Positions 24,298 to 64,000 of a stretch of 64,000 bases of DNA are shown here, piece by piece. Source of the DNA: Squalus acanthias (taxonomy: Eukaryota); the NCBI GenBank assembly GCA_030390025.1, contig CM059432.1, positions 48,610,001 to 48,674,000 of the forward strand, written 5' to 3'. The position numbers were made by a program, and so were the translations under genes. The notes under the pieces were generated by a model. It was not told where the DNA came from, searched no databases, and saw only the letters and a program-made list of their open reading frames with translations. Numbering within the stretch: position 1 is the stretch's first letter; every line of letters begins with the position of its first letter.

Positions 24298-24794
24298 ATT
24301 ATTTTGTCACTACACACAAATACACAATATAGGAGATTTTCCTGGATTTGCACACAGGCGCACTGGATCATGGGTGCAGTAAATATTGGAAAATTGTGTG
24401 TGTCTGTAAAGGAGTCGGTCCGATTTTCCACCCCTTGGTGTTGACCTTCTTTGTTTTCCCACTGGAGTCTGCTCTGCTTTACCAGCGCTTGTGTTTCCAT
24501 ATCGAACTGTCTTAAGCACCAGCCCCCATCCCCCGCCCACCACCTCAACTATTCACATATTCTCTGTCTCTCATGTATAATTTATTTCATTATGCCTCCT
24601 ATTATCTCATATTAATATAATTTCAGACATTTAACCAATTCCTGAGCACTTTACAGATCATTATATTTCTTCTCTCATTTGTGTTTGAGTGTTTGTGTTG
24701 TTTTCTCTCCCCCTTCCTTATGTTCTGGTCCTTTTTAAATACTATTCGTTTGTAATATCTTCAGTTCTGTTGAAGGTTCCCCACCTGAAACCTT

Positions 24795-26543: not shown

Positions 26544-29500
26544 TTTAATTCATTCATTGTGTCATCACTGAAGGATTCAGCACCCCCAGCACAACTTTTT
26601 CAACTTACTGAGATATTCCCTATAATAATTTTAAATTATTTTGCCTTGCCATTTTAATATTGGCCTCTCATCAATGTGAAGTGGTTCAGATGTGCACTTA
26701 CCTGAAAGCAGTGGTGTGACTTGGGAGTTAGTTCAATGACCTGATTCCCAAGTGCACTAAGGACAAGAGGTGTGAGAGGTAAGTTGACTTGTACTGCATA
26801 GGCTTTGCACCAGGTATAGTACAAATCAACCAAGTTGAGAAAGCAGGCTACAAAAGTTCCCAGAGCCATAAGGCTCAGAAGCATTTAAAGAAAATCGGGC
26901 AGGGCGTTTAACGAGCAGCCAATCCGTTACTGCCAGTTTTGTGATCTTGCCGAAGTTGAATTTTATCCCCAATATTTTAAATGTTAGAAGAAAGCCTTTA
27001 CTGCTGCCGATATCTTGCAACTGAAATGTAACCAGCTAGACATGCTTCTTTACTGCTGGAAAGAGTGCAATATGACGCCAAAAGTGTGATTTGGGAACTC
27101 AGGTTTGTTGGCTCTGCATTGCATTGTATAGATATTAGTGTGAAACCAATACATGCAGCAGAAGGTCCCTCTCAGTGCCACAAATGAATGTAGATTTCAG
27201 ACTACTATTTTGTGATGGGATCAACCTATTCCATTGATTAAACTTTCTAATTTATTTCCCTGTACGTTTCTCCTGGCTCAGCCAGCCATATATTTTCTGC
27301 CCCTTCCTAAATCTCTGTCACGGCTCTTCAAACCTTTGCGTTCCTCTCTCTCTCTCCCTATCTTTGGTATCAATTGGAAGAATCCAATCACAGCTTACAA
27401 TCCAAAATGCGCCCTACAAAAACCATTGGCACTTTCCTGCTGAAATAGTATCATTCATTTTGAGTGAATATTAATGACAAATGTCATGCTGCTTGTGTTA
27501 TCCTGATTTTCGTGTCCAGTGGTGCAGTCTGTTATTCCTGGAGGTGCTGAACAGAAACAGGTAAGCTGTCATTTATTAAATTCTACGCTATGTTAAATTT
27601 ATATCAATAAAGGTATAATGCAATAGATTCTATTCATGTTCTTTTATTTAATACTCTGTCCTTATCAATACAAAAGTTCAGATGTTTAAAAACTGTGGGA
27701 ACAGATCGAAGAGCCAACAAATTGAAGAATATCCTGAAGGGTTCCTCAATCATTAACCATAAGCCAAGCTTTTTTTTTGAATGGCCAAAAAGCAAGTTAG
27801 CACTAGTTTTCAATGATCATAAAATTATCTCAATCTCTTTTAATACAACAAATGTTTCAGCTAAACAATCATATATTTTATCCACAAACATATAGAAATT
27901 TAAATCACAAGAAATGAGAATTTGTACACTGTGATTACAGGAATTTCTTAAAGAAATGTTTGCTGATTTATTGGAAAGCTAGTAGAAGCACTTGTCTTCA
28001 AACAGAACTTACACAGGAGCAACCCACAGGTTAAAGCATTTCTATTCATGCAACCACAGGCAGAATAAACTAAAACACTGCAATGTCTTTTTAATCATTT
28101 TTGTGAGCTCCATTTCTGAGGTAGATCTGGAGAACCTGGCAGAAAGGCAATGCCCATCTTAGGTGTCCTTGTCTCAAATCTTTTGCTAATTATTGTACAG
28201 CGAGACGTTTAGAATTAATTTGTGTTAAGCTGCACCAGTGCTGGCCAAGAGTGAGGCATTTTCTCTGTCTTTCTCTACAGGGTAGAAATTACTCTTGCTG
28301 CTGTTATTGTAAGAATACTTAAAGTGTTTGTGTTAAATTCCATTCTATGCTGTTTAAATGGAGGCATTAACCTGGTTGTTTTAAGTGGGTTAATGCCTTC
28401 ATTATAATAGTGGAGAGAGAATTGGAAAAACTTCCCAAATCGTAGCAGGATCAACCCTGTGCGAATATATGGGATGCTTTTCTCTTTTCATCGTTGTTTT
28501 TAATTTTTTAGCCTGTCACTATTTTCTCTGCCATTTCCTAGCTCCATCCCCATTATCAAGAGCATGGGCCATATCTGAAAAACATACATTGTGAATGCAG
28601 AATAAGTGAAAGCAAGGTAATAGAATGGAATGTTATATCCTGCTTGTGCAAGGGACCTAAGTGCCATTGTAGTTTTGCTTACTATTACTGTATTGTGAGT
28701 TATTTATGGCTCACCTTATACAGTATTAACATATCATTCTATTTTTCTTAAGTTTAAAAGTTTTAAAAAGTTTGAGTTTCCAAGCTATCACATGAAAACA
28801 ATAGCTACTATCATAATATCTGTTGTAGGTCAAGAACAGACAATGTTGAAAACAAAACATCATGTAGATGATTATCTGAATGAGAAAGATAGTCCGATAT
28901 TTCATCAGAAGAGTAACCCAACTTTTTCTTCAAATGCTGATCAACCTGCTACACATTGCCAGCACTTTCGAACTTCCATCTTTCACATTCTTATCATTTC
29001 AAGAGTATAGTAAAGCATTGCTTAATGGGAAAATTCCCATATCAGCAGGAACAAAGCAATCTCCATTCTAATGTTCTTTTTGCAGCCTGGTGGACAATTT
29101 CATCACCAACTAAAAAGAGCACCAGCTGCAGATGAAGGTTTATTAATTATTGGCTAGCAGCTAGGGTTTTTGCTGCGGGATTTATATCGTAATTTATATA
29201 CATTTTTTCATGAAGTAAATGAATCATCATAAGCAATGGTAAATCTACTGCACATCAGAAAACCTGGGGCCATATTCAGAACAGGCTTAGGCAGCATCTG
29301 TGGAGAGAGAAACAGAGTTAATGGCGGAATCTTTACCTGAGCGTTGGGGCGGGTGCGTACGGGCTGCCATCGCAAACTTTTTAACAACGCGTTCTGCACC
29401 GTGCGTTTAACTTAATTACATCAATTGAAACATGTGGGTTTCCTGGCCGAATTAAATGGAGCGGGTCTGCTGATGTCACCGATGACTCGTTTTCAGCTCG

Positions 29501-29609
29501 GACATTTAAAGCAGCCTTGCACACATCCCAGTTGAAGGTTGTTGGAGGAGAGATAAAGGTGGTTGGGAGAGGTGGAAATTGCTGGCAATCACAGAGATTT
29601 GTGTGGGTC

Positions 29610-31224
29610 ATGGAGTCACACTGACAGAAGGCTGCGCCCAGATTCACTTGATGCCTCCCTGGAAGTCCCTGTCCAGGGAGTCAGAGCACGCAGGGAGGTC
29701 CTGTTCTCTGGGGATGGGTGAAAAAGAGCAGCCAGAGACACCAAGAAGGCATGGCTGGAGATCATAGGAACATAAGAACAGGAGTAGGCCATTGAGCCCC
29801 TCGAGCCTGTTCCGCCATTCAATGAGATCATGGCTGCTCCGTGACCTAACTCCAAATACCCGCCTTTGGCCCATATCCCTTAATACCTTTGGTTAACAAA
29901 AAGCTATCAATCTCAGATTTAAAATTAACAATTGATCTAGCATCATTTGCCGTTTGCGGAAGAAAGTTCCAAACTTCTACCACCCTTTGATCGTGGAGGT
30001 CAGCAGCAGGGATGTTGTAAGGCGGTCCTGGATCCAGTGCCGGAAAAGATTTAATGATCTCATGAGGTCAGGAAAGGTGAGTGCAATGCCACATTCAACT
30101 ACATCCTAATGTGCGTGCCACCCCAACCCCATCACTCTGCCTTCCCAAGCTTACTCCTGTACTCACATCCCCATCTGACTAACCACCACTGACACTCACC
30201 CTCATCTTAATGCAATCATAGGAAGTAACGCCACAGAAGAAAGCCATTTGGAAATGTCATGCCACTCCCTCATTGTGACCCTCTACAGATGTAGCCCATC
30301 CATTCCTTACACTCATTCCATCACTCTCACTCAAAGTTCTCTTCTTTTCATCCTTGCAGGAGAAGAGAGTCCAGACCAACAGGGAGAGACAAAAAACTGG
30401 AGGTGGCCCTCCAATGTTCACCAACTTGAGTCCAGCAGAGGAGGAGGTGCTTCAAATCACCAGAGTTGCGAAGCTGCTGGCGGTGGGAGATGGAGAAAGG
30501 GGGACCTCCCAGCAACCTGGTGACAGAATTAAATCTCATAAACCCACATGGCATACAACAGTCACTCATGGTGACTTGATGTCAGCAGCCAGTGAAATGC
30601 CATCATTTACATAATGGTAACATTACACATTCTTATCATAAGACTTCTAAGTCATGTCTTTACCCTCCCACAGGTCCATCAAGTACCCCCCCCCACCCAC
30701 CACTGTCCAGCCTGAGGAGGAAGATGACTCATCAGAGGAAGCTCCACTCTGAGGGTGCACTGTCACCAAACCCATACGCACCCAGCACCATCGCAGATAC
30801 ACGCACCTCGGTGGGTCCAGCGAGACATAGAGTAGTGTTGTCACCTGGTGTCTCACAGTTCACAAGCTAGCAAGAGCAGATGGTGGAGACAGGGACAGCA
30901 GTGGAGACTCCTCGCCGGAGGGCGCAGGACGCTGCCAGCTCTGCTCAGCTGCATGTAGACGCTGAACCTCGGGAGCCATCGAGAAAGAGGGTGATCTTGG
31001 AGAAGCAGCAACAAATGCACGAGGCTCTGGCAGCTTTTGCAGCCACGATGTGTGTGAGTGTACAGAGAATGGAGGAGTCCATCTCCAACATGAGCATCAC
31101 CATCTCGCAGGCGATGGCGACGATGTGCTGTTCCATGGAAAGCTTGGCCACCTGCATGGAGCAGCAAATGCGCCAGTCGAACGAGAACATGCCTGCTGTG
31201 GACAAGATTGTAGACACTCATTGA
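29610..31224 (+). pseudogene. Harbinger Myb/SANT-like gene, 3 exons, interrupted by CR1
   Basis: AAPRF; WIQCRKRFNDLMRSGK then GTGAGT; TTGCAG then EKRVQTNRERQKTGGG; GTGACAG donor; third exon similar to element 1. Confidence 0.8.
29762..29988 (-). mobile_element. CR1 3' tail fragment
   Basis: CR1 3'UTR and tail repeat, flanked by GATC(A/G)T. Confidence 0.8.
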
Positions 31225-31269
31225 CCTCATCTTGACGAGGGATACCAACTGCTCCTCAGCTCCTTGCTA

Positions 31270-32461
31270 GCAAGGAAGTACGGGTGGCCCATGGGAAGGA
31301 TATGCAATGTGCACCGCTGCTGGTGCCATCTCCATCTCAGGTTTCTCCTCCTCTTCCTCCTCGTGTTCCACCTGTTCCTCCTCCTCCTCCAAAGAGGCTG
31401 TGTGTTCTGCGCTTTGCTCCTCCTGCAGCTCCAATCCTCGCTGCTGCGCTCTGTTGTGAAGCTCGCAGCATACGACGATGATTCTGGAGACCCTGGCTGG
31501 TCCGTATTGTAGGGCTCCTCCAGATCTGTCAAGGCATCTGAAGCGCATCTTCAGCATGTCGATTGCTTGCTCTATGACACATCTGATGGACATGTGGCTG
31601 TCATTATAGTGCTCCTCGACCTCATTGCTTGGCCTCCTCAACGGTGTCATCAACCACGTCTTCAGTGGATAGCCCTTGTCTCCAAGGAACCATCCAGTAA
31701 GTCTGTTTGGAGGTGCGAAGAGCTGAGGGAGGGTGGACTGGTGCAGCATGAAAGAGTCATGACAGCTGCCAGGGAATCTGGCACACACATGCATGATAAT
31801 CTTTTTATGGGTGCAGCATTGAGGGAGTGAAAGCCCTTGTGGTTCACAAACACTCCTGGGTGATGTGGGGGTGCCTTGATGGCCACATGTGTGCAGTCAA
31901 TGATGCCCTGCACCTGTGGGAAGCCAGCCAGAGCTGCAAAGCCGAGCGCCTGCTTAGTAACACTGGCTTCATCAGTGGCAAAGTTTACATAATTGGCTGA
32001 CATGTGAAACATGGCATCAGTCACCTGGGTGATACATCTGTGGGTGGCCGACTGAGAGATCCAGCAAATGTCTGCTGCAGATCCCTGGAAGGAGCCTGAG
32101 GTGAAGAAGTTGAGGTCGGTGATGACTTTGACAGCCACTGGTAAGGCATGTCCACCAGGTCCTCTGGGCAGCAGGTCTTGCTCCAGCAATCTGCAAATGT
32201 CTGCGATGACCTGACGCGATAGCCTGAGCCTCCTGAAGCACTGCTGCTCCGTCATGTTGAGGAAGCTGATCCTCTGCCTGTATACCCTGTGTTGGGAGTA
32301 TTGCCTCTGGCGCAGTGCACCCCTGTGCTGACCCCCTCTCTCCTGTGGAGCATCAGGTCAGTGAGGAGAAGGCTGCTGCTGCTGCTGCTGGTGTGGCTGG
32401 TGCTGAGGCTCATCTTAGTCCCATTCTGAGGTCCAAGGTGAGACAGCATAAGCGGCACCCA
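31270..32461 (-). pseudogene. Harbinger DDE transposase, frameshifted
   Basis: [52 protein letters not shown]. Confidence 0.92.
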
Positions 32462-32951
32462 TGCTAATCTAATAGATGCCAGGAGATCAGAGGCACAATC
32501 CTCCAATGTACTGGGAGTGACTAGCAATGTGGTGAGAGTGGCTTCATAGGTTCCAGAAATCACCTGCAAACTCCTGAAAGCTAAATCTCTGCACCAAATG
32601 GTGTCAGCAAGAGCCTTTCCATTAGGCGAGGAAGCAGGGGTAAGGTGTGAATATTTATGTGCTTTTTCCAGCTGTCACTTAATGAACTCGCACAATGGCC
32701 ACTGAGCTTCCGCCTCCCCTTCACAACCAGTTAAAGTTCAAACCTTACGTTAAAAAGGCAGTTAAGGGTCTGTAAATGAGCAGTTACGTACCTCAATGAG
32801 GTCGCCCGTGTCTCCTGAGCCTCAAAATGCGCCCGAGTTAAAGACAGAAGTCGACGGGATGACGGCAGGTTACCGACGCGGTCAAATTCTGCGCTTTTAA
32901 CCGCCGACCCGTCCCCAAACCCACACACTCTCCAATGTGAAAATTCCGGCC

Positions 32952-33078
32952 AATGTTTCAGGTCCAAAGGTCATCGACCTGAAACGTTAACTCTGTTTCT
33001 CTCTCCACAGATACTGAGTATTTCCAGCATTTTCTGTTTTTATTTCAGATTTCCAGCACCCGCAGTGTTTTGCTTTTG
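32952..33078 (+). repeat. Penelope-like short repeat; inverted partner at 29290-29322 plus 32955-32964
   Basis: AGGTCATCGACCTGAAACGTTAACTCTGTTTCTCTCTCCACAGA...; same family as 60590-60924. Confidence 0.75.
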
Positions 33079-34138
33079 TGCTAAACAAGCTTTTATGATT
33101 AAAACCAAATAAGTACTTTTGGTTCAGATGGATTTTTTTGTTCAATAATTTTTTTCTCAAAACACATCATTAGCTAAAAGTGTTTTTTATTTAGATTGTG
33201 AAATACCACATAATGATAATTTAAAACATTTTACAGCACCTTGCAATGATTTGGGGAATTCAGTTACTAATTGATGTCTCAAAGCCTATTTTTAAAAATA
33301 GGTCATTTGTGTCTTTATTTTGTTATTCTTTCACATAGAGCCTACATGAATCTCTGAAGGCAACAGACAATGACTGACATTGCTGAGAGTGAGAGATGGA
33401 AGATTTGCTTTATATGGTTGAGCTTTCTTTCTACTTTATCATCAATTTAAACTGGTTAAAAATATCACTGAAAATTGCAACATTTTTATATTTGAAACAA
33501 TTTATTTTTCTCACACTATTGAAGGCTACTTTCCAAAAGGTTTTATGTGGTTAAGATAAAATGAAATAAAAGCAAAACTGAATGTTAGCATAAATCACTT
33601 TAAATCCTGTCTGTAATATATTCCTTCCTCGGTACTCAGCCTCTGCAAATATGTGCTCACTGGATGCACTTAACAGGCATGGCAACGTTTGGGAGCTGGC
33701 CTCGTGGGTAGGGGAGGGAAATAGATGTGATTACCACCACAGTATAGTGTGGTAATCTCCTGCATTGTCTAGTGCAATCATTCACTATTATAAACTGCAC
33801 TAGGCAAGTCAACCCTTTCATTTTTTAACATATCCTCTGTCTTGCTTGATGCCAAGAATGCAATGAGATTCAGCATTGCTAAGGTATTCATGACAGGAAA
33901 CATGTTGGACGATGTCTTCCTTTTATTACCCTGTAACTTTCATACATATTTACCGCCCACCATTATCTCGAAGGACAAAAGTGGTGGGAGGCATTGAGGA
34001 GCCAGTGAAATGGCTCCCTGCCACAATTCCTGCTCCCGCCCATTCCAAAACTGCCCCAAAATTGGTGTAAATACAGAAGAAAATCTGGGTCAATATCTCA
34101 AGACAGAATTTATTTGTCAGACTTTTGCGTGAATTTTT

Positions 34139-34325: not shown

Positions 34326-36432
34326 AATCTTTAAAGTCAGTAATAACATTATTTCAAGAATATGACCCCTGGATTTCCCCGTTATTCTTTGTTAATGCAA
34401 ACATAAACTTTTAATATAACCCATATTTCCCATTCAAGAAACAAAGATTATAATTAGGTGTAGTTTGTGCATGATCGGTCAGATCACGCAATTACTCTAA
34501 CACACTTAAAGCCAAGACCACATTACAACTTCAAACATCACTCAAACCTGAAAACAAGGTTTGACAATTAATCAACATGCTGATATCAAAATAACTTTAT
34601 CTCATTACTATACGAGTATAATTTTTGTTAAGATTCCTTTACAGAGCCATGTTAATTTATCATAGGCTACATGTAAAAGAGATACATGTGTTTTTGTCAC
34701 ATTTAAAATACTGAGAATATATGTTTAAAAAAAATTCCTCCACAGTTATGGCTATGGAAATCCAATAAGCATACAAACTGGACAGAATTTAAACCTGATG
34801 AAAGTTTCTCCCTTGCAGGTCACAAATGTAATCTCCAACAAAGATGAAGTAACTCCCATGTAGGATTGACTATCAGTCTTAATATTTGTTACATCTTTTC
34901 TTCAGTTGTTGCTCAAGGTGATACCTTATTCCAGATGTCACCCGTTCCATCCTCATCAACCACTATGTCTCCTTCAGTTTGTTTTAACTGCAAAATACCA
35001 ATGAGACAAATGAGTGCTTGTTTTAGTCAGGGCACCACATAATTCAACAAAAGCACAAACACACAAAAATTCACAGGTTTCAATGAAAACCTTTCAAACA
35101 GTTTGACAGCACTGCTTTCAAAAAGAAATGCTTGGTCCAATGAAAAATTGCAGCCAAACATTTTAAACAAAATAAATCAGTGGCAGCCACAATCCCTTGT
35201 TATAAATATTTAGCCCTTAATGTTTGCTTCCAAATCTGAAAAAATCACTACATCTGATTTCAGACAGACTGTCTGTTGATGGAGGGAAGCTGTTGTAGGT
35301 AGCTATTTTCCTTCAGTTAAATTATTTTTTAATCCCTTGTCCTGACAGCTATCCATTTTCTAGGCTCAGAAGCTCAGCAAATGATCAAGCTAAGCATTAA
35401 AGTTCTTCTTGTTGTTTCCAACCTATACTTCATCATTTGAAATGGGATAACATCTTAATCTTCATATCTGGACATCTGAGGGCTGAAATTCCACAGCCCG
35501 GGGTGGGTGGTGGGGGGCACCATTATCTGGACAGGTGGGGGAAGAATTTGGGGCAGGACCTGTGTACATTGAGTCCATGCCCTTTTTGACCCATCAGAAA
35601 TTCTGCAAGTTTTAGGAGCAGGCACATAATACACCAGCTCACAAATGGGCAGGTGTGTTGTGACGCGTATTTCTCTCAGTTAGGCCTTAATACATACTGG
35701 GTGCAAGAGACACCTGTACATCATTGAAGTCCAGCGTTGCTTAGGGTTTGGGGGGATTTAAAGCTCAAGGTGAATTTTCTGTAAAGCAATCGATTGCAGA
35801 GCAAAGTGACACAGTGAAATCCCTCCCCCACCTCAGGCTGGCACCCCAATTGCAGGAAGAATGGAGCAGGCGGTCTTCAGAATTACCAAGTGGAGTGATG
35901 ATCGGTGCAGCTGATCTACCAATTCAGTCAGTCATCATAGCCAGCCTGGTCATAATACCATAAGACCTTGCCATTATTCTTACTCTGTGGCAGCTTCCAC
36001 AGCTCTAAGGTGCAAGTTCATCGAGGTGACGTTAAGTCGGCGTGTGATGTTACCCACTCTTAATTTACAGTTCCAGGGCCAACGCATCTGTCGCCGAGTC
36101 CCGCGCCAGATCGCACGAAAACTCGTGACAGTAAGTGGGCCAATTTCTAGGCCATAAGCTGCAATCAACAGAGCCACTATTATTTCAGGGAATATCGATG
36201 GACAATTAGGGATGGGAAATAAATGCAGCTTTTCCAGTGCCAGCCAGACAAGAAAATTTTTTTTAAAAAATTAATGGCCAGACGGAGAACTAGACTGGAC
36301 TAGGGTTCCAGAGATACCGTCTTGATTCATCACTTATATTATCAGTCTAAAATCCAGGAGTCACAGCTCAAAACAATATAATGAGGCACAACTTCTTCCA
36401 GTTCTGTAGAAAGGTCATCAACCTGAAACATT

Positions 36433-36974
36433 GGCCCTGATATTGACAGGGATGAGTTTTGTAAGTGGGGCGGGTGAGGTCATTCGGTCGGGAGACCTGG
36501 AAGTCCGGGTTTCGCCGCATGCTGTGGCGTTTTAACCGACCCCGAGTTGGGTCCAATCCCAAGGGGAGGGGGTCCGGGACCCCGGGGGTGGGGGGAACTC
36601 TGATCTCCGGGGAGCGTTGGCAGGGAAGAAGGTAAGCATGGGCGGCGGGCGGTGGGGGGGGAAGTATTCCTGCTCCTCCTCGCCCACAAGCAGTGCTGTA
36701 AAGCCATTTACCTTTTCCCCAAAGTTGTTCTCGCCTCCCTTGAGCTGCAGGGTTAAAGCTGTAAGACAGGTTAAATGTGAGGCTCGCAGCCTCATTATAT
36801 TTAAATGGCCAACCTGTCCCCTGAGAGCGGTTTGGCTGCTCGCCCCCTGTCCCGCCTCCGTTAAACCCGGAATGGGCGGGTTGGAGGCGGGTTGGGATCA
36901 GGCTTGAGATTTAAAAAATTTTAACATCTCACCCGACCCCAACCCACCGGTTTTTGGGGGTTAAAATGACTCCC
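36433..36974. mobile_element. Harbinger-type MITE inserted in a Penelope-like repeat
   Basis: Termini GGCCCTGATATT...TTAAAATGACTCCC; near-TSD ATT/GTT; host repeat continuous across it; similar to 57804-58719. Confidence 0.8.
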
Positions 36975-37067
36975 GTTAACTCTGTTTCTTTCCCCACAGA
37001 TGCTGCCGGACCTGATTTTCTCTTTTTATTTCAGATTTCCAGCATCTGCAGTATTTTGCTTTTGCTT

Positions 37068-39197: not shown

Positions 39198-42100
39198 CGG
39201 GAACGGTAGTGTAGCGGTAATATCACTGGGCTAATAATCCAGAGGCCTGGACTAATGATCCAGAGACGTGAGTTCAAATCCCACCACGGCAGCTGGGGAA
39301 TTTAAATTCAGTTAATTAAATAAATCTGGAATAAAAAGCTAGTATCAGTAATGGTGACCACGAAACTATCGGATTGTCGTAAAAACCCATCTGTTTCACT
39401 AATGTCTTTTAGGGAAGGAAATCTGCTGTCCTTACCTGGTCTGGCCTATATGTGACTCCAGACCCACAGCAATGTGGTTGACTCTTAACTGCCCACTGAA
39501 ATGGCCTAGCAAGTCACTCAGTTGTAACAAACCGCAACAAAACAAAATAATAAGAATGAAACCAGACGGACCACCTGGCATTGACCTTGGCACTGGCAAC
39601 GGCACACCCAGCCCAGTCGACCCTACAAAATCCTCTGGGGACTTGTCCCACAGACTAGTCAAGCAACAGCTTACAGAATCATACCTTTCAGCCAATATCC
39701 CGAACTCCTCCATCATCATCCTTGGGTATGTCCTGTCCCACTGGCAGGACAGACCCACCAGGGGTGGTGGCACAGTGGTATATAGTCGGGAAGGAGTGGC
39801 CCTGGGAGTCCTCAACATTGACTCTGGACCCCATGAAGTCTCATGGCTTCAAGTCAAGCATAGGCAAGGAAACCTCCTGCTGATTACCACCTACTGCCCT
39901 CCCTCAGCTGATGAATCAGTACTCCTCCATGTTGAACACCACTTGAAAGAAGCACTGAGAGTAGCAAGGGCACAGAATGTACTCTGGGTGGGGGACTTCA
40001 ATGTCCATCACCAAGAGTGGCTCGGTAACACTACTACTGGCCGAGTCCTGAAGGACATAACTGCCAGTCTGGGCCTGCGACAGGTGGTGAGGGAAGCAAC
40101 ACGAGGGAAAAACCTACTTGACCTCGTCCTCACCAATCTACCTGTCACAGATGCATCTGTCCATGACAGCATTGGCAGCAGTGACCATTGTACAGTCATT
40201 GTGGAGACGAAGTCCCGTCATCACACTGAGGACACCCTCCATCGTGTTGTGTGGCACTACCACTGTGCTAAATGGGATAGATTCAGAACAGATCGAGCAG
40301 CTCAAAACTGGGCATCCATGAGGAGCTGTGGGGCAGCAGCAGAATTGTATTCCACCACAATCTGTAACCTCATGGCCCGGCATATCCCTCACTCTACTAT
40401 TACCACCAACCCCGGTTCAACAATGAGTGTACAGGAGCAGCACCAGGCTTACCTAAAAATGAGGTGCCAACCTGGGGAAGCTGCAACACAGGACTAGCAG
40501 CATGCTATAAACAGGGCTAAGCGATCCCACAATCAACGGATCAGATCAAAGCTCTGCAGTCCTGCCACATTCAGTCGTGAATGGTGGTGGACCATTAAAC
40601 AACTAACAGGAGGAGGAGGCTCCATGAATATCCCCATCCTCAATGATGGTGGAGCCCAGCACATGAGTGCAAAAGACAAGGCTGAAGTGTTTGCAGCCAG
40701 AAGTGCCAAGTGGATGATCCATATCGGCCTACTCCCGAGGTCCGCACCATCACAGAAGCCATTCTTCAGCCAATTTGATTCACTCCACGTGATATTAAGA
40801 AATGGCTGAGCGCCCTGGAAACAGCAAAGGCTATGGGCCCTGACAACATCCCGGCTATCGTGCTGAAGACTTGTGCTCCAGAACTAGCCTTGCTTCTAGC
40901 CAAGCTGTTCCAGTACAGCTACAACACTGGCATCTATCCGACAATGTGGAAAACTGCCCAGGTATGTCCTGTCCACAGAAAGCAGGACAAATCCAACCCG
41001 CCCAATTACCGCCCCATCAGTCTACTCTCAATCATCAGCAAAGTGATGGAAGGTGTCATCGACAGTGCTATCAAGCAGCACTTACTCACCAATAACCTGC
41101 TCACTGATGCCCAGTTTGGGTTCTGCCAAGACCACTCGGCTCCTGACCTCATTACAGCCTTGGTCCAAACATGGACAAAGGAGCTGAATTCCAGAGGTGA
41201 GGTGAGAGTGACTGTGCTTGACATCAAGGCAGCATTTGACCGAGTCTGGCATCAAGGAGCCCTTGTAAAACTGAAGTCAATGGGAATCAGGGAGAAAACG
41301 CTCCACTGGCTGGAGTCATACCTAGCACAAAGGAAGATGGATGTGGTGGTTGAAGGTCAATCATCACAGCCCCAGGACATCGCTGCAGGAGTTCCTCAGG
41401 GCAGTGTCCTAGGCCCAGTCGTCTTCAGCTGCTTCATCAATGACCTTCCCTCCAACATAAGGTCAGAAATGGGAATGTTTGCTGATGACTGCACAGTGTT
41501 CAGTGCTATTCGCAACTCCACAGATAATGAAGCAGTCCATGCCCGCATGCAGCAAGACCTGGATGATGTTCAGGCTTGGGCTGATAAGTGGCAGGTAACA
41601 TTTGCGCCACAGAAGTGCCAGGCAATGACTATTTCCAACAAGCGTGAGCCTAACCACCTCCCCTTGACATTCAATGGCATTACCATCGCCGAATCCCCCA
41701 CTATCAACATCCTGGGGGTCACCATTAACCAGAAACTTAACTGGACCAGCCACATAAATACTGTGGCAACAAGAGCAGGTCAGAGGCTAGGTATTCTGCA
41801 GCGAGTGTCTCACCTCCTGACCCCCCAAAGCCTTTCCACCATCTACAAGGCACAAGTATGGAGTGTGATGGAATACTCTCCACTTGCCTGGATGAGTGCA
41901 GCTCCAACAACACTCAAGAAGCTCGACACCATCCAGGACAAAGCAGCCCGCTTGATTGGCACCCCATCCACCACCTTAAACATTCACTCCCTCCACCACC
42001 GGCGTACCGTGGCTGCAGTGTGTACCATCTACAAGATGCACTGCAGCAACTCGCCAAGGCTTCTTCAGCAGCACCTCCCAAACCCGTGACCTCTTCCACC

Positions 42101-44757: not shown

Positions 44758-47700
44758 TATGACTCTAAAGCAGGGCAAGGACAGCATTGCCTGTGGCTGT
44801 CAAGGTGACTGTGGCTCTTAACATTTCTGCATCTGGCTCCTTCCAGGCTGCTGCTGAAGATGTAAGCAACGACTTGCAGTCTGCAGCGCTCTGCTGCATA
44901 AGGGAGATCGCTAAGGCTCTCTATACACAGAGAAACAGTTTAATCTCATTCCCTCTTGCCAGAGACATGCAGGCGGAGCGACCACGAGGGTTTGCTGTAT
45001 GTGTGCCTCGTGTGAACTTGGCCATTTTCATGAACCGATGGGATTTCACTCCCTCAATGTGCAGCTGGTGTACGACCACAGGCTGCGTAACATGCAGGTG
45101 AATGCCCATTATCCCAGCAGCAGCCACAATTATTTCATTCTGCAGCAGTCCTCTGTGCCACCTGTATTTGACCCACTATGGTAAGGCAAAGGCTGGCTAC
45201 TGGGCGACAAGGGTTAGCCACTCATGACATGGCTCATGACTCCAGTCCGGAACCCACGCACACGTGCACAATAGACCTACAATGAGAGCCATGCTGCCAC
45301 AAGGAACATTATAAAGCACACCATCGGCATCCTCAAGCAACGCTTCCGCTGCTTGGAGCGCTCTGGAGGAGCCCTGCAGTACTCAGCTGAGTGGGTATCA
45401 AGATTTGTAATAGTGTGCTGTATGCTGCACAACCTCGCCGTTATGAGGGAACAGCCTTTTCCACCATCTGTCAGGCAAGAAGCTGAGGAGCAGGAGCACA
45501 AGGAAGAGGAGGCATTGAGGAGGAAGAGGAAGTGGCAGATGTGCAACAGGATGTGGAGAAACAGGAAGAGGAAGGGAGGCTACAGCATACGTCATCAGAT
45601 TATTCATGAGCGATACCAGTAACCTCAACCACACCTTCCATTCACCAACAGTCCCACACTCCTTACCTTTCCCATATCACTGTCACATCGACCTCTTTCC
45701 AACAACACAAAAATAAAAACCACCAGAAAGTGCACATACCTAGTGGGCCCGACTTCAGACAGCACCATCTCAGCATGGGTGGCAGCAGTCTGGGCTGGCT
45801 GGCTGATAGGCAACAGCAAGGGCACTGCCAGAGCGGCAGAGATAGGAGCAAGAATGCTGTCTTCTTGAGAGAGGACAGCAGATTAGTGTTCCATAGAGCC
45901 ACTGCAACTATCCTGGGGCGGTGCCTCAGCAATCCGACTGATCTGTTGGAGAACAAATTGATGGACTGCTGTGATAACCTGGAAGCCCCTTTGAACAATA
46001 GTATCCAGAGCCACAATGGCAGCTGTCTAGGCTTCCACTGCAGCACTCAGACCTTTGTTGGAAGCTGCCTGTGTTGCAATGGAAGCTGTGATATCAGCAA
46101 TCAGATGCTGTATCATGGTGGGTTCCACAGGTGTGCTGATGGAGGTGGCCACCTGTTCCATGTTTGAAAGGATGGGCTCCAAGCTCTGCGCAAAGCCCTG
46201 TGCCAAGTTGGTGCTGGACTCCTCCATGCTCCTTGACATGTGCGCAGGCTTTCTGACAGGCTTTCTAGTGCACCAATCATTTGGTTGTGTACACCCATCA
46301 GACCTCTTCTGTAGCCTGGTCCATCAAAGTCCTCACCCGACCTCTGCCCTCAGTCCTCTGCAGCAGAACTCGTGTGTGACTTCGCCCTCCGGCGAGCTGG
46401 CACCTGCGCTATCCTTTCCCCCTCCCCTGGCTCCTGCGCACCTGTGCCCAGTGTCTCACCATGTGAAGATCCCTCTTCTAAACTAGCCTCTAAAATAAAT
46501 GTAGTGTCAGTCTCTGAGCTGGAGGCTGAGAGTGTAAGATCGAATGACGGTGTCTCTTCATCTTCGCTGTCTTCTTTCTCTTCCTCTACTGACTGAGAAA
46601 GCTCCAGTTCTTAGGTATCTGAAATAAAAAAGGGACAAGGTTTGGGTTGTGGTGAGGGGAGAGGAGAAAGTTAGAAGTACGTGCTTACACCATCTGTAGC
46701 TTGTGAGTCCGAATATATTGTGGAATGAGGGAGAAGTGGGATGAGAGAAGGAGGATTAAGTATGCAGATATCCTCATCATCGATCCCTCCAACTCCCCCC
46801 CCCCCCCCGTGGCCACGGCCTCAGTGATAGCCCTTCCCATGATGGCCAGCAGTGACTCCTCCATGGGGATCAAAACATGCAGGCATGCTTGCCCTCCTCC
46901 AGTTCTTTGCTGCTGCCTGCTGTTATGCGCCACCTTCTTCTACAAGAAAGAGGGAAATGTGTCAGTGAGTGTCCTGCAATATGTTTGGGTGATGTGGCTG
47001 CCATGGTTGAATAGCTGCCTGTGAGTGCGATCTGTGTGTTGTGGGTGCGCGGCTTGCAACAGTGTAAAGTGAGGGTGAGGTAAAGCATATGAATTGAAGG
47101 ATTGAGTAGTGATTGATAGAGATTGTTGGTAGATGGGTGATGGAGTGTAGTGAATTTAGCAGTGGATGAGGCTAGTGGTGCAGTAGGTAGGAGATGCCAT
47201 TTGAAGATGAACTCACTCACCTTGACAACTCGTGTCAGATTGTTAAACTTCTTCCTGTTCTTGGAGTTACAGTCCTGGCATTGACCTCTGCCGCTATTTC
47301 GTCCTACTGCCTCCTGAGCATCTGTCTGGAGGACCTCCTGCGCCCGCACCCCCCACCCCCCTGCGGATACAGGACGTCTCTCCTTCTCTCCATGTCTTGC
47401 ACTAAGACCTCCAGTGCAGTGTCTGAAAACCTTGGTGCTCGCTCCCTCACATGTTCAGCCATTGCTTAAAGTATCACAACACAGATTCACTTTTCAAAGG
47501 ATTCCCACCACTTCTTGCCGCCACAAAGCACAGCCCCTTTAAGAGGTGAAGGCTGCCTTTAAGTAGCGCTAGCCACTCGCGATATCAGGCCCCCTGCTGA
47601 TGCATACAGCCAATGAACAGTGTGGGCTGCACGCAGCAATCATTTAAAACAGCAGGCAGAATTTATCCGATAAAAACCCCATACTGTTTGTGAGAAATAA

Positions 47701-51965: not shown

Positions 51966-54133
51966 GGGGCTAAAAACTCGTGGCCGCTACGAGAGTTGCC
52001 GGTGTCACCGCGGCCTTGGGTTAATGGCCGCTGAAAGTGGACAAAGTGCTACCAGAGATATATTCGCATCTGGAGCTAAAGGTTTTTAGCCCAGCGCTAA
52101 CTTACCGTGTAACGCCCTCCTGGTGGCGTTAGTTCAGGCATGAGAGTCGAAGTTCCCGTCCAGGAGCGGCGTTCCAGCTTCCAAACAGACTCTGAAGCGA
52201 GGCAACAGAGTTTGCTAGGCATTGTGGGAAATTAAAAGAGCAATGCCTTCTGAACCAATAAAAATAAAAATGAAGTGAAAAAATGCAGTTTTCAGGCCTT
52301 ACTGCCTTAAAAAAATTGACACTAAAAAGAAGTCCCAAATGGGAAGCTTCAGCTCTTAAAGCTAAATTCCCTTCTGAGCCTTAAAAAATGGGAAAAGTGC
52401 TTCAGCACTAACACAAATAGCTCAGCAAGCCAGGGTAGGTGCACCCAGGGTCTCGCACGCAGCACTCCAGCTTTATGCAGGGGGTCAACAGGAGGCCCTC
52501 CAGAAAGAAGGATGTGGGACCAGATCACTGAGGCCGTCTCTGTCAGCAGTGTCACCCCCACCACCTGGCTCTAGTGCCCAAAGAAGCTTCATGACCTCAG
52601 ACCACTGGTCAAGGTCAGTGAAAGCCATCTCCTACCAACTGCACCACTAGCCTCACACACTGCTCAATGCATGACTACCACCCCCCCAACCCTGTCAATC
52701 ACTCACCGACCAACAATTTGTACCAATCACAAGGCACATCTCCCATTCCTAGCCTCACCTCACCCCCTTGGAAGAGACGGTGCAGGCCATCCTTGGCAGG
52801 GGCATGGCTGAGCCCTTGGCCAGCGGCGGGGCATAATGGATAGAAGATTCTGGTATTTTCATACGTTAGCCTCCTTCTGGCCCTTTCCCGCCTCTCTTCA
52901 GCACAACTCCACCCTTGTGCCTTCCTAGCCAGTGGTTGGCCAAGAGGAGGGAGAGGAGAGTGAAGAAGAAGAAGTAGAAACACAGTCACTTGAATTGACA
53001 ATCCCAGCCACCAGCTCCTCAAGGTCAACCAGCAAGACCATCTCCAGTGTCCCCCACTGAAAGTCAGCAGCCTTCCACCAGCCATGCTGCAGCCACTGGG
53101 GTAGCACTGCGTGACATCAGTGGGATAGGCAAAGGCACACACAAGACAGGTACTAAGAGAATGCATAAGGGTAATAAGTTGATTTCTTGATGCCATATTG
53201 GATGGATAGATGTATAAAGTTGGATTGGAAAGTTTGCTTTGTGGTGGTTTTTATTTCAGCGTCGTGGCCAAGAATGATGGTCAGTAACAGAGGGAAGGTA
53301 AGGTGTGGGACTAATGTTGAAAGGGGAATTGGGGTTCTGGTCACTGGTACTGCAGGCGGATGATTCCATCCCAGATATCCCGACCAGAAAGGGGGTTGTC
53401 TGGGTTGCATCTTTCCTTCTGCTTCCTCCTCTTCGGCTCTCTTCTTTTCGACTTCTTCCTCGTCTGTTTCTTCCTCTTCTGCTTCTTCCTCCTCCCACTG
53501 CAAGCAGCTGCTGTAAATCTGAATTGACAGCATAAAATGCTAGAAATACTCAGCAGGTCAGGCAGCATCTTGACCTGAGAAGTGAACTCTGTTTCTCTCT
53601 CCATGGATGTTGCCTAACCTGCTGAGTATTTGCAGCATTTTCTGACTTTTCAGAGGCCTTCCTTTATCATCCGAGGCCTTGCAAGTATTCAGCAGCACTC
53701 CCTACACACTTAAAAAACTTTTAACATCTATTGCAGCAAGCCACTACTTCAATAAAATCAAAAAACCCAATCCAAAAGCTTAAATGCAAACTTACGTGAA
53801 AGATATGTGTGTCTTTTTAAGAGGTGTTGACAGCGCCTCTGTCAGTCTGCTGCATGCTGGGTTTACTTGGCGAGCTTAGGACCCAGGGCTGAATTCAGCG
53901 CAAAGGTCCAAGTTTGCCGTGGTGACGTTAAGTTGCCGTTGCACGCTGACTGACGTCACCTCTCCCTCATTTTACTTTGCTGGGCGACGGATGCGACCGG
54001 CATTGCTGCTGGGCCTGGGAAAATGGAGGATGCCGGGGGGACCCGCCACCAGCTGGCAAGAGCAGCGGCCGCCCTCTTAACGCAACTTTTTGCCGGTAAC
54101 ATGTAGCGTTTAGTCCCCCAAATTTTTAGCGCT
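51966..54133. mobile_element. Deleted Harbinger derivative, family C
   Basis: GGGGCTAAAAA start and TTTTTAGCGC end; Myb exon-1 remnant; first ~950 bp match 19615-20650. Confidence 0.7.
53526..53645. repeat. Inverted pair of Penelope-like repeat fragments
   Basis: AAATGC...ATACTCAGCAGGTCAGGCAGCATC pairs with GATGTTGCCTAACCTGCTGAGTATTTGCAGCATTT. Confidence 0.7.
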
Positions 54134-54519: not shown

Positions 54520-54725
54520 CTAAAACAGAAAATGTGGAAATATAGACCAAGTTGTTCAGCATCAGAAAGAGAAAGAAAGGTTGTTTTCAAATGCAGCTCT
54601 TTATCAGAACTGGCAGTCCTGGGTTCTGATGACGGGTCCCACCCATAACATTAACTTATTTTTCTCTTTCAGACTCTGACTGATCTGTGTATTTTCAGCT
54701 ATTTCTGATTCTGCTTTAGTTTTGC
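54520..54725. repeat. Older inverted Penelope-like repeat pair with degenerate hammerhead motif
   Basis: TTCTGATGACGGGTCCCACCCATAACATTAACT at ~54624-54656; diverged inverted arm upstream. Confidence 0.5.
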
Positions 54726-58719: not shown

Positions 58720-60589
58720 AATGTTTCAGTGCCATTGTGTAAGGTATTATTCTCCCCTATACTGCCACTAAATTGGATCTGAATGGTCTGCTTCAATATA
58801 AAAGAGCAGAATTACAATGAGAAATTAAATCGTGACACAAATGCTTAGCTTTGCCCTTGATCATTGGCATAGAGAACGAAAATCCCCTAAAGGTAAGATT
58901 AACTTAAAGAGAAGTCTCACTATCAGTAACTCATTCAAAGTTCAAGCAAGTACAAAGAATTGTGATGAGTTTTAATGTCCATTTGTTTTGCATATTTTTG
59001 CTTCAGCACCGAACATGAAGATGGAGTGGGCTCAGAGGAGCGAGGTTATCAGGAACCAAATTAATACACACACTGGGAAGGACAAGGTTGTTGAAGCACT
59101 TTTGCTTAAAGATAATGGCTAACCCCTGAAAAGGGGCGTGGCGATCGCGGTGCGTGATTAACCTGCGCCCGTTCATTGTGATGCAGGGTTAGGGTTACCT
59201 GTGCTGTTCTTTGGCTGCACGCATCAGCAGGGGGTCCGACAGCGTGAGAGGCGAGAGCTACTTAAAGAGGAGGTGCATTGTGGCAGCAAGAAGTGGTGAG
59301 AGTTTTTCTGGGTTGTGATACTTTGAGCAATGGCTAAACATGCACCAAGGTTTTCTGACAATGCACTGGAGGTCTTGGTGCAAGACGTGGAGAGAAGGAG
59401 AGACATCCTGTATCCGCAGGGAGACAGGAGGACTTCCAGACAGATGCTCAGGAAGAAGTAGCGGTGGAGGTCAATGCCAGGAGTGTTGCTCCTAGAACAT
59501 GGATGCAGTGCAGGAAGAAGTTTAACGGTCTGACACGAGTTGTCAGGGTGAATGAGTTCATCTTCAAATGGCATATCCTACCAACTGCACCACTAGCCTC
59601 ATCCACTGCTCAATTCACTGCATCCCCGCCATCCATCTACCAACAATCTCTATCAATCAGTACTCAACCCTTCAATTCATATGCTTTAGCTCATCCTCAC
59701 ACACTTCACTCTGTTGCAAGCCTCTCAACCACAACACACAGATTGCACACACTGGCAGCTATTCAACCATGACAGCCACATCACTCAAACATATTGCAGG
59801 ACACTCACTGACACACTTTCCTCTTTCATTCAGGAGAAGGTGGCACATAACAGGAGGCAGCAGGAAAGAACTGGAGGAGGACAAGCACGCCTGCATGTTT
59901 TAACCCCCATGGAGGAGGTAGTGCTGGCCATCATGGGAAGGGGCATTGCTGAGGCTGTGGCCACTGGTGGGCCTGGAGGGATCTATGATGAGGGTATCTG
60001 CATATATAATCCTCCTTCTCTCATCCCACTTCTCCCTCATTCTCTGTTCTGACTGACAAGCTACAGACGGTGTAAGCACACACTTCTTACTTTCTCCTTT
60101 CCCCTCACCACAAACCAATCCTGAAACCTTCCCAGTCAGAGGAGGACGAGGAAAATGACAGTAAAGATGAAGAGACACCGTCACTCGATCTTACACTCGC
60201 AGCCATCAGCTCAGAGACTGACACTGCACATCATTTATAGGATGGGATAGTGGAGGGATCAGCACGTGGTGAGACACTGGGCACAAGTGCGAAGGAGTCA
60301 GGGTAGGGGGAAAGGATGGCGTAGGTGCCAGCTCGCCAGAGGGTGAAGTTGCACACTAGTTCTGCTGCAAAGGAGTCAGATGAGGACTTCGATGAGCCAG
60401 GCTATAGAAGAAGGCTGATGGGTGTACATAACCAAATGCTTGGTGCACTGGAAAGCCTGGCGGAAAGCCTGTGCACAATGTCAAGGAGCATGGAGGAGTC
60501 CAGAGCTTTGTGCAGAGCTTGGAGCCCATCCTTTCCAACATGGAACGGGTGGTCACCTTCATCAGCACACCTGTGGAACCCACCATGAT

Positions 60590-60924
60590 TCAGAGCCATC
60601 TTTCGTTCCTTAACTTGTCCCATTACCATCTCCTTTTGCCTTGCACCATCTCTTAATCTCTCTTAATGTCTCTTAATCTCTCCTGCCTTCCATCCTATCA
60701 CAGACCTTCCCTTTTGTTCTTTCCACCCCTCCCCCCTTTCCCTGCCTCTGTACTTGCTTAAAAACCTGTTACATCTCTAACGTTTTCCAGTTCTGACAAA
60801 GGGTCATCGACCTGAAACGTTAACTCTGTTTCTCTCTCCACAGATGCTGCCTGACCTGCTGAGTATTTCCAGTATTTTCTGTTTTTATTTCAGATTTCCA
60901 GCATCCGCAGTATTTTGCTTTTGT
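60590..60924 (+). mobile_element. Penelope-like short retroelement with minimal hammerhead motif
   Basis: TSD ATGAT (60585-60589/60925-60929); absent from the homologous position of element 4. Confidence 0.78.
60789..60825 (+). ncRNA. Minimal type I hammerhead ribozyme-like motif (one core mismatch)
   Basis: AGUU-CUGACAA-AGGGUC/AUC/GACCU-GAAAC-GUU-AACU: stem I AGUU/AACU, stem II, palindromic AACGUU in place of stem III; CUGACAA rather than CUGANGA. Confidence 0.65.
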
Positions 60925-61623
60925 ATGATGCAGTGTCTGATGGCCGATGTCACAGTTTGCATTGCAGCACAAACAGCTTCCATCAAAGGTCTGAGTGCTG
61001 CAGTGGAATCTCAGACTGCTGCCATCATAGCTCTGGATACAAAGGGGTTTCCAGGGCATCAGAGTTGTCCATCAATCTGTTCTCCAACAGATCAGTAAGA
61101 TTGCTGAGGCACTGCCCCAGAGCGTGGCAATGGCGAACCTGCTTTCTTCTCTCAGGATGACAGCATTTGTGCTCCCGCCCCTGCCACTCCGCCAGTGCCC
61201 TTGCTGTTGCCTGTCAACCAGCCAGCCCAGACTGCTGCCGCCCATGCCGAAATGTTCCAGTCTGAAGCCGGGCCTTATTTGCCCAGAGCTGTTTGAGGTT
61301 GCCGACCAAGGCCATTTGCAGTCTCTACAATTGAAGGTCAGCAGCCATCCACCACCCATGCTGCAGCCACTGGGGAAGCACCTCGTAGGAGCACTGAGAG
61401 AGGCAAAGGCACACGGAAGACAGGCACTAAGGGAATGTGCAAGGGTGATTAGTTTATTTTTGTATGCATTATGCAATGATTGAATTTATAAAATTGGATT
61501 GGAATGTGCATTTTCTGGTGGTTTTTATTTTTGTGTAGTCGGAAAGAGGACAATGTGACGGTCAGTGATAGAGGAAAGGTAAGGAGCATGGGACTGTTGG
61601 TAAATGTGGAAGTGTGGTTGAGG

Positions 61624-62788
61624 TTACTGATATGGCTCATGAACTATTTGATTTCGTAGAGCCCGGGCAGAAAGGAGCTGTCTATGTTGTAGCCTCCCGT
61701 CCTCTTCCTGTTCTACTTCCTCCTCCTCCTCCTCTTCCTCGCGTTCCTGCTCCTCAGCTTCTTGACTGATAGATGGTGGCAAGGGCAGTCGCCTCATCAT
61801 GGCATGGTTGTGCAGCATGCAGCATACCACCACAAATCTTCAGACCCGCTCAGCTGAGTACTACAGGACTCCTCCAGAGCAGTCCAGGCAGCGGAAGCGT
61901 TGCTTGAGGACGCTGATGGTGTGCTCTATAATGCTCCTTGTGGCAGAATGGCACTTATTGTAGGCCTGCTGTGCATGTTTGTCTGGGTTTTGGACCAGAG
62001 TCATGAACAATGTCATGAGTGGATAACCCTTGTTGCCCAGTAGCCAGCCTTTGACTAGCTTGACATGGTGGGTCAAGTACAGGTGGCACAGAGGACTGCC
62101 GCAGAATGAAGGAATCGTGACTGCTGCCAGGATAATTGGCCTGCATGATGAGCTGCCTGTGGTCGCACACCAGCTGCACATTGAGGGAGTGGAACCCCTT
62201 TCGGTTCATGAAAATGGCCAAGGTCACAATGTGCCTGCAGTCAATGGCACCCTGCACCATGGGGAAGCCTTCAATCCATGCAAACCCTTGTGCTCGCTCT
62301 GCCTGCTTGTCTCTGGAAAGAGGGAGTGAGATTAAACTGTTTCTCTGTGTATAGAGAGCCTCAGTGACATTGTTTATGCAGCAGTGTACTGCAAACTGCA
62401 TGATGTTGCTCATATCTCCAGCAGCAGCCTGGAAGGAGCCAGATGCATAAATGTTAAGAACCACGATCAGCTTGACAGCCACAGGCAATGCTGTCCTTAC
62501 CCTGCTTTGAGTGCAAACATGCGCAGCATGCCTACAGTTATGGCTGCAGCAGTTGGCAGATTTCAGTCACGACCTCTTTAGTGAAGCAAGATGTCCCATG
62601 TATTTGTCTTCGCTGAAGTTCGCTGAGTAAGAGAATTGCTCCCTAAAGACCCTGGGTGGATATGGCCTCCTGCTGAGAGCCCTTCTCCCCCTCCTCCCTC
62701 TTCTCACAGCATGTCCTGCTCTGCGTGGCCTCTTTTCATTTTCCCAGTCATGCTGAATTCCAAGAGGAAGGCCTACCAGGCCACCCAT
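61624..62788 (-). pseudogene. Harbinger DDE transposase, frameshifted
   Basis: [58 protein letters not shown]. Confidence 0.9.
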
Positions 62789-62964
62789 GTCTAGAAGCAA
62801 CTTGGTTCAGCACAAGATTTTAAATGAACAAAAAAGTATTTCAGCACCAACCAGACCACTTCCTGTAGACTATTGAAACTTTAGACAAGTATTGGAAAGC
62901 TCCAAAAACACACAGAATTGCACCAACAGCCAGAAGAAATAATCCAGCAACTAACCTGTAAGTA

Positions 62965-63167
62965 TGAGAAGTCGCACAACACCAGGTTATAATCCAACAG
63001 CTTTATTTGAAATCACAAGCTTTCGGAGCGCTGCTCCTTCGTCAGCAGCACTCCGAAAGCTTGTGATTTCAAATAAAGCTGTTGGACTATAACCTGGTGT
63101 TGTGCGACTTCTCACATTTGTCCACCCCAGTCCAACACCGGCATCTCCACATCATGGCTACTATCGA
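62965..63167. mobile_element. Penelope-like insertion with inverted pseudo-LTR (150-bp hairpin)
   Basis: Arms of ~71 bp with 2 mismatches over 62965-63114; 12-bp TSD AACCT(G/A)TAAGTA (62953-62964/63168-63179). Confidence 0.82.
63017..63045 (-). ncRNA. Minimal hammerhead core; stem I disrupted by the inversion junction
   Basis: Minus strand reads CUGACGA-A-GGAGC/AGC/GCUCC-GAAAG-CUU; palindromic AAGCUU. Confidence 0.7.
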
Positions 63168-64000
63168 AACCTATAAGTAGTTCATGATCCCCTTAAGTAG
63201 CGCTACTTGGGGGGGCGGGGGGGGGGGGGGGTTCTTCATGCCGTTGAACGTATGTTCAGCTGTGCGAGGTTAAGAGATGGCATCGGCTGGAGTGTGGTGT
63301 TCTAAAATGGCAGCACTGGCGTCAAATCAGTGTTGCACACTGATTGACATCATAATCTAACTGCTCTGCGTGCTGTTGGCAGTCGTTAGGTGTGTGGGCA
63401 CAAACTACTGTACCAAGATGGCGTCTGGCATACTACCCGTCAGAAGTGTGCATGCGCATCTAGGCCCCGATGTATGACCTTTAGGAGGCTGATTAGTGTC
63501 TAATACTTGGGTGCTACAGAGCCCAATTTAGCCCCCAATCTCTGCTGATGATAGTTCAGCTCTGTCATGGTGTTTGGCTCACAAACTCCTTCAAGCCAGT
63601 TGCTACAAAGGAATCAGCATTCCTGGCTTTAAATCAGTAGGAATAGCTAAACCAAAAGAAAATTAAAGTCATTCAGAATTCTTTTCAACTGATTTCAAAG
63701 AGGAATGACGATACAGTTATGCAGTTGTGGACGGTTCTTTCATCTCCTGGCGTCCAGAACTTTCCAGCAGGAATCAGCACCTAGTGATCAGGAACAGGAA
63801 ATCTTGTTGACTTTTCCCCTCCCTAACCAGGGGACACCAAGGTCAATTATTTTGGCCCTATTGCCAACCTGTTTAAGATCCGCTGACCCAGCACAGACCA
63901 GACCTGCTCTATTTAGTTCAATATTACACCTTATGGAGCATTTATACACGGAGCCATCAGGCAATCTTTTATTATTGTCTCTATGCTTAGCAGCTGCTAT

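Follow-up and report, generated by a model that had tools for sequence, protein, structure and literature searches.

The window, i.e. the whole 64-kb stretch of shark DNA that was analyzed, is repeat-rich vertebrate DNA in which remnants of Harbinger-type transposase, of Myb and of LINEs occur together with one piece of a transporter gene of the SLC7 type. Apart from three weak matches that are unrelated, Pfam and motif regular expression searches of 300 window frames yielded nothing beyond Harbinger, LINE and a single transporter. The LINE remnants (RVT_1 and endonuclease matches in Pfam) lie at 3.2, 10, 39-42 and 55 kb. The LINE endonuclease/RT region at 39403-42086 is closely preceded, on its upstream side, by a tRNA-like segment that has a B-box at 39272 and scores 22.8 bits with the Rfam tRNA model, less than the cut-off; together they occupy 39205-42100. 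The transporter piece, at 16195-16755 on the minus strand, encodes part of the light chain of an SLC7-type amino acid transporter (matched by Pfam AA_permease in two different frames), with best solved matches to xCT, LAT1 and LAT2 (E about 1e-22 to 1e-23); it is the only piece of a host gene found in the window.

At 60594-60924, on the plus strand, lies a 331-bp insertion that appears to be the 5'-truncated end of a probable Penelope-like element (PLE), with a pLTR-like part, a hammerhead and a tail. It is flanked by a 9-bp target-site duplication, the left copy of which (60585-60593) is identical to the right copy (60925-60933) at 8/9 positions. The host is a decayed Harbinger-type DNA transposon (59204-62512; ~79% match to 44762-47620) with a DDE_Tnp_4 domain at 61864-62566 and a weak Myb_DNA-bind_5 match at 59359-59769 (Pfam). 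A paralogous Harbinger-type repeat (46108-47620 plus 45746-46116, ~79% match to the flanks) lacks the 331-bp insert, and this empty site holds a single copy of the 9 bp, at 46108-46116 on the minus strand.

The upstream part of the insertion (60594-60788) is pyrimidine-rich and contains an internal tandem of a 10-bp unit (x3.4) at 60649-60682. The hammerhead motif follows at 60789-60825, and the remaining ~100 nt (60826-60924) form a tail that is the commonest part of the family and ends at a common 3' end. A stop-free frame of 48 codons (60781-60924, plus strand) spans the hammerhead and the tail; its ATG at 60844 stands directly after a pyrimidine tract and CAG resembling a splice acceptor, and a second pyrimidine tract lies near 60880-60895. 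The NCBI shark gene model P0023, a translated relative of the repeat from the horn shark (Heterodontus francisci), includes the 48-aa peptide, probably through mis-splicing or mis-annotation.

The minimal hammerhead motif

Numbered according to Cervera and De la Pena (2014, PMC4209133), the motif opens with the 5' strand of helix I (60789-60792) and the core C3-A9 (60793-60799), which reads CUGACAA here, position 8 (60798) being A where the family majority has G. There follow, in 60800-60813, an extra nucleotide (A60800) and helix II (60801-60805 with 60809-60813, closed by a 3-nt loop). The segment 60814-60821 holds G12-A15.1 (GAAA, 60814-60817), C15.2-G16.2, U16.1 and U17, with a loopless, palindromic half of helix III; the 3' strand of helix I (60822-60825) completes the motif. 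Cleavage is predicted to occur after 60821 (U17). The sequence agrees with the earlier sequence-only reading, which had described CUGACAA, stem II, GAAAC-GUU and a 4-bp stem I at 60789-60825; the absence of a stem III loop and the presence of the palindrome AACGUU, which it had also reported, are confirmed.

We searched the window with a descriptor modeled on the published minimal hammerhead ribozyme (min-HHR), which allowed at most one core mismatch and required stems I and II of at least 4 bp, a Watson-Crick 15.2/16.2 pair and an NUH triplet. With one core mismatch allowed, 60789-60825 was the sole match on both strands of the 64 kb, and among block-wise dinucleotide shuffles 1/200 gave any match (mean 0.005). 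The sole core mismatch is the replacement of G8 by A. When no core mismatch was allowed and stem I was held at 4 bp or more, the descriptor found no match in the 64-kb window, and the 60789-60825 copy is therefore not an intact ribozyme. C3-G8 is described as a required base pair of the active hammerhead core, covarying to U3-A8 (PMC3088659); as this copy retains C3 opposite A8, the pair is broken.

Apart from the core, which departs from CUGANGA by the A at 60798, the copy has the features of a min-HHR: a helix I of 4 bp, a helix II of 5 bp, the extra A60800 after A9, and at 60814-60821 GAAA followed by a palindromic 15.2-16.2 pair and an NUH triplet with no helix III loop. Its 10.1-11.1 closing pair is G-U, unlike the usual, though not universal, G-C. 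An Rfam search of the window with E up to 10 gave 18 matches, none of them a hammerhead, and the 37-mer folds no better than its shuffles (z -0.47). In ViennaRNA, a model that ignores tertiary contacts, helix I did not form in the monomer, and an imposed double hammerhead scored -8.5 kcal/mol, weaker than the -17.5 of the free dimer and the -12.8 of two monomers. The poor stability of the imposed dimer nevertheless fits weak activity. To judge from its sequence, the 60789-60825 copy is most likely a dead relic.

The family in public sequencing runs and in the window

Contigs of four public runs out of 22 listed, X3, X18, X6 and X20, were mapped on 60570-60950 (381 bp) at 80% likeness; X3 and X6 are DNA-like, and X18 and X20 are guessed to be RNA runs. 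The sequence-only reading had called the repeat abundant, as is borne out by the 59,831 (X3) and 101,598 (X6) contigs mapped, with a further 5,383 (X18) and 4,614 (X20), none of these figures being a copy number. Expressed as shares of summed contig depth, which are likewise not copy counts, G at 60798 accounts for 0.84 (X3), 0.96 (X18), 0.87 (X6) and 0.95 (X20), where the reference has A. With G in 84-96% of depth, the family majority core is an intact CUGACGA, and the consensus of the run contigs lacks neither CUGANGA nor GAAA, the boxes whose loss the sequence-only reading had named as fatal to its proposal.

The remaining variation in the motif is concentrated at few positions. U stands at N7 in 16-29% of family depth in the four runs, and 60801 G to A, in 47-63%, turns the 10.1-11.1 closing pair from G-U into A-U with pairing kept. 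The loop base 60806 is changed in 8-14%, and departures at the CpG 60818/60819 amount to 2-10% at 60818 and 2-13% at 60819. Among the 40 difference rows listed (25 further rows lie beyond these), the changes above 5% within the motif were those at N7, the G-U/A-U swap, the loop and the second CpG, and there was no changed row at the other core bases.

In the two guessed-RNA runs few letters break the core (non-G at position 8, 4-5%; changes at 15.2/16.2, 2-4%), fewer than in the DNA-like runs, and the harmless N7 C to U is common (20-29%). In the DNA-like runs both sides of the C7-G8 CpG change about equally, i.e. 18 vs 16% and 16 vs 13%. Young copies dominating a few contigs would give the same pattern of a low core-breaking share in the guessed-RNA runs.

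Family cover in the runs starts near 60596 and stops at 60922-60926, where each DNA run has hundreds of unlike loose ends, i.e. a common 3' end with differing flanks. Two copies in the window terminate at the same text as the 60924 end, at 33079 and 37064. In X3 the depth is 6e5 at the 5' end and reaches 1.4e7 at the motif, and over the runs the motif exceeds the upstream part of the insertion in depth by ~7-fold or more. Opposite-strand joints near 60808/60842 were present in 4/4 runs, and a back-joint at the cut site was absent among the 15 of 247 contig joints listed.

Copies in the window begin at many different points. The sequence-only reading had cited related copies at ~24763, ~32967, ~36410 and ~54624; relatives are indeed present at all four places, but none has the whole core. 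In those at ~24763 and ~36410 the 5' box is damaged, and a Harbinger-type insertion cuts each of them: the first is an older copy (24758-24794, plus strand) split at the triplet by the insertion 24795-26543, and the second (36390-37064, plus strand), which has an 11-bp candidate target duplication, is split at the triplet by a 0.54-kb insertion (36433-36973). The ~32967 copy is without the 5' core box and begins at an inversion junction within helix II. It belongs to a back-to-back pair (29272-33079) comprising a plus arm at 32966-33079 and a minus arm at 32965-32952 plus 29321-29272, the latter interrupted at the triplet by a Harbinger of 3.6 kb (29322-32951). The ~54624 copy does keep CUGAUGA, at 54626 on the plus strand, but has lost the GAAA box; it lies in an old back-to-back pair of diverged relatives (54522-54700). 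A further back-to-back (fold-back) pair, of tail fragments, occupies 53509-53644, and its junction corresponds to 60842/60809 of the focal copy.

In an alignment of 8 hand-picked window rows, which mix two families and take their structure from the focal row, 83% of 47 stem cells were paired. Apparent covariation in the same rows was 0.242 vs 0.129 when shuffled (a value reached by 0/500 shuffles, with slid controls no higher than 0.103), some of the double changes coming from poorly aligned decayed rows. A second hammerhead family, at 62953-63179, has intact CUGACGA and GAAAG-CUU boxes at 63045 on the minus strand and a helix II of 5 bp, and its helix I partner is absent. It lies within the loop of a near-perfect fold-back of ~150 bp inside a Harbinger copy, with a 12-bp duplication (11/12); an Rfam MIR396 match at 62985-63095 was rejected as spurious, being caused by this fold-back repeat. 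Exact-pattern scans for the motif gave no match in viral contigs, metagenome contigs or prokaryote genomes.

The three Harbinger-type insertions at 24795-26543, 29322-32951 and 36433-36973 are separate events at the same base of the repeat, and each duplicates the 3-bp cleavage triplet; they affect 3/8 of the copies containing the site, counted by eye. For comparison we assembled a set of other Harbinger ends, i.e. 22 candidates minus 4 at hammerhead sites, minus 4 that looked internal, plus 1 (n=15). Seven of these 15 hand-picked Harbinger-like ends follow RAVAY, against a background of 1.4-1.5%, the motif having been drawn from the same ends. This makes a general Harbinger target preference likely, one that GAAAC fits, and we read the hot spot on the cleavage triplet as plain target preference, a curiosity.

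Origin of the insertion

We consider it probable that 60594-60924 represents the 3' end of a Penelope-like retrotransposon, truncated on its 5' side and derived from a source with an intact min-HHR, and that the copy has since decayed. The family combines 5' truncation, a common 3' end with a tail and adjacent inverted copies; PLE insertions are described as being truncated at the 5' end, accompanied by an inverted neighboring copy and tailed at the 3' end (PMC8557442; PMC11167929). The sequence-only reading had also linked the motif to the minimal type I hammerheads of PLEs. This assignment is supported by the descriptor match and by the fit to the published min-HHR consensus (PMC4209133), its sequence features being present at the family level; from it we infer the PLE origin of the carrier.

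Under the PLE reading, target-primed reverse transcription would have placed 60594-60924 into an older Harbinger relic, leaving the 9-bp duplication. The source PLE would have carried an intact loopless minimal hammerhead, and two tandem copies in the source RNA could have paired through the self-complementary A15.1-C-G-U16.1 to form an intermolecular helix III, each dimer core combining the enzyme strand of one copy with the GUU site of the other. Such a dimer might cut weakly after U17, perhaps aided by the element's protein. Published min-HHRs are reported to have no activity as monomers and low activity as dimers (PMC4209133), and the hammerhead of an Anolis PLE to cut only with the element's protein, to be abolished by G8C and not to be needed for insertion in vitro (PMC11167929). 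Reverse transcription from a fixed point in the tail, stopping early, would yield short dispersed copies. After insertion the focal copy would have lost G8 through CpG decay, G8A being the change expected from CpG deamination, and with that loss it would most likely have become inert. In the literature searched we found a test of G8C and no direct test of G8A in a hammerhead.

Searches for a link to PLE proteins were negative, and the window contains no full-length PLE copy of this family. GIY-YIG gave 0 Pfam matches in 300/300 window frames of at least 70 aa, which likewise held no RT linked to the insert, and three homolog searches for a PLE protein link were empty or returned only the query itself. 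The 48-aa frame over the motif had no longer homolog by word index. It gave 27 HMMER matches, of which 26 look like incidental translations of diverged copies and one, P0013, is an unrelated repeat protein; RT or GIY-YIG was found in 0/27. At the residue over N7-G8-A9, Met was aligned in 9 of the 26 translated relatives and Thr in 6; as Met fixes U7-G8, this is a weak second sign of G8 in the family. One other candidate was P0027, the N-terminal stretch of which we took to resemble a PLE endonuclease C-terminus; searches gave no confirmation and it was rejected.

Counting against the PLE reading are the lack of an RT/GIY-YIG link, the lack of an Rfam hammerhead, the energies and the closing pair other than G-C. 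That no ORF was found linked to 60594-60924 also favors a dedicated non-autonomous mini-element of ~330 nt (pLTR plus tail), transcribed alone and mobilized in trans by PLE proteins, with the hammerhead kept because the source RNAs need it; the sequence-only reading, a non-autonomous Penelope derivative, comes near to this. PLE-derived non-autonomous units (bioRxiv 10.64898/2026.07.22.740005) and non-autonomous elements of Chlamys (PMC8557442) have been described, and the family cover reaches the 5' boundary of the insert with a steep rise at 60596-60621, which is compatible with a fixed 5' end. However, the reference turns to flank DNA from 60593 upstream, hiding any continuation, so a truncation and a fixed 5' end look alike. 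The varied starting points of the window copies and the greater depth at the motif are as for 5' truncation, and the insert has no Pol III B box and the window no tandem. On balance we find such a mini-element unlikely. A more far-reaching version, for which the scarcity of core-breaking letters in the guessed-RNA runs is a weak hint, appears distinctly improbable: a very abundant, PLE-dependent and separately transcribed mini-element whose intact copies would cleave as dimers in vivo, including within host transcripts, and would be switched off copy by copy through CpG decay (C7-G8, C15.2-G16.2) and Harbinger insertion at the triplet.

Target duplication, 5' truncation and inversion also happen with LINEs, and this, together with the missing PLE protein link, leaves some room for the hammerhead unit being the 3' end of another retroelement (e.g. 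a LINE) or belonging to a non-PLE carrier. This seems very unlikely to us, since none of the LINE remnants in the window terminates in this unit, 60594-60924 has no poly(A) or simple-repeat 3' end, and loopless min-HHRs were described from the ends of PLEs (PMC4209133). We give even less credence to the idea that the focal copy still works, or has been co-opted, as a ribozyme with a host transcript as its target: both helices, I and II, are without a mismatch and some natural core variants stay active (PMC3088659), but the C3-A8 mismatch has no compensating U3, the descriptor found no whole-core partner copy in the window, and the copy is embedded in a transposon relic, the only host coding exon found being ~44 kb away and on the other strand. 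Finally, the Rfam result and the folding z-score could be taken to mean that a repeat resembles a hammerhead by chance. This idea is largely refuted and its likelihood is negligible, given the rarity of descriptor matches in shuffles, a family majority that repairs exactly the single core mismatch in the run contigs, and a second family in the window that shares these boxes but differs in helix II, which is fully paired, and in the 15.2-16.2 pair, which is swapped.

The sequence-only reading had further labeled the repeat SINE-like and a retrozyme derivative, and neither label fits, as there is no tRNA-SINE head and no tandem array. None of the five exact matches to the Pol III B-box consensus in the window lies in 60594-60924, and Rfam and tRNA searches gave no tRNA-like match there. 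TRF found no tandem of the repeat unit in the 64-kb window, only the window loci having been examined.

Comparison with known systems

The preference of the Harbinger-type elements has a precedent in Harbinger3_DR, which is described as having a strict AAAC-containing target (PMC3016246). Like that element, the Harbinger-type ends in the window follow a GAAAC-like half-site and duplicate 3 bp; unlike it, their preferred site coincides with the G12-C15.2 box of a hammerhead, and the duplicated 3 bp are therefore the cleavage triplet.

Non-LTR retrozymes are by definition tandem repeats, every unit of which carries a hammerhead (PMC7229834; bioRxiv 10.64898/2026.07.22.740005). The shark repeat is like them in being ~330 nt long, non-coding and PLE-related with a type I hammerhead, and differs in that the focal copy and its relatives in the window are single or back-to-back and not in tandem units. 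Li et al. (2026, bioRxiv 10.64898/2026.07.22.740005) report retrozymes in the genome of one chondrichthyan, and the focal copy could conceivably be a solo monomer of a retrozyme-type family.

PAc, the Poseidon-type PLE of Anolis carolinensis, has its hammerhead at the pLTR/ORF junction (Frangieh et al. 2024, PMC11167929). In PAc as in the shark family, the sequence after the hammerhead makes up the 3' end of genomic copies, which terminate at fixed points. The PAc ORF begins within stem II, whereas in the shark an open frame crosses the motif and has its ATG at 60844. Cleavage of PAc was assayed, and was protein-assisted (PMC11167929), whereas the shark family is known here from its sequence.

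The shark family resembles the min-HHRs described in 2014 in the pLTRs of metazoan PLEs (PMC4209133). No printed shark PLE hammerhead was found in the literature, with Repbase/Dfam, some supplements and most subscription papers outside the scope of the search, and no shark example was found in the searched part of the supplement of PMC4209133. At the family level the motif is, like the published examples, of type I, with CUGANGA and an extra nucleotide, a loopless helix III, a palindromic C15.2-G16.2, a 4-bp helix I, an NUH triplet and copies that are mostly single and dispersed; U17 and 10.1-11.1 pairs other than G-C also occur among the examples listed there. It differs in its helix II of 5 bp with a 3-nt loop and, in the focal copy, in G8A. 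The repeat is thus one further family, of a shark type, in a class known since 2014, and an ordinary example of it. The flagged copy is itself probably dead, and the very large family to which it belongs, whose majority core is intact and which includes many natural variants at single bases, offers material for testing the function of PLE hammerheads.
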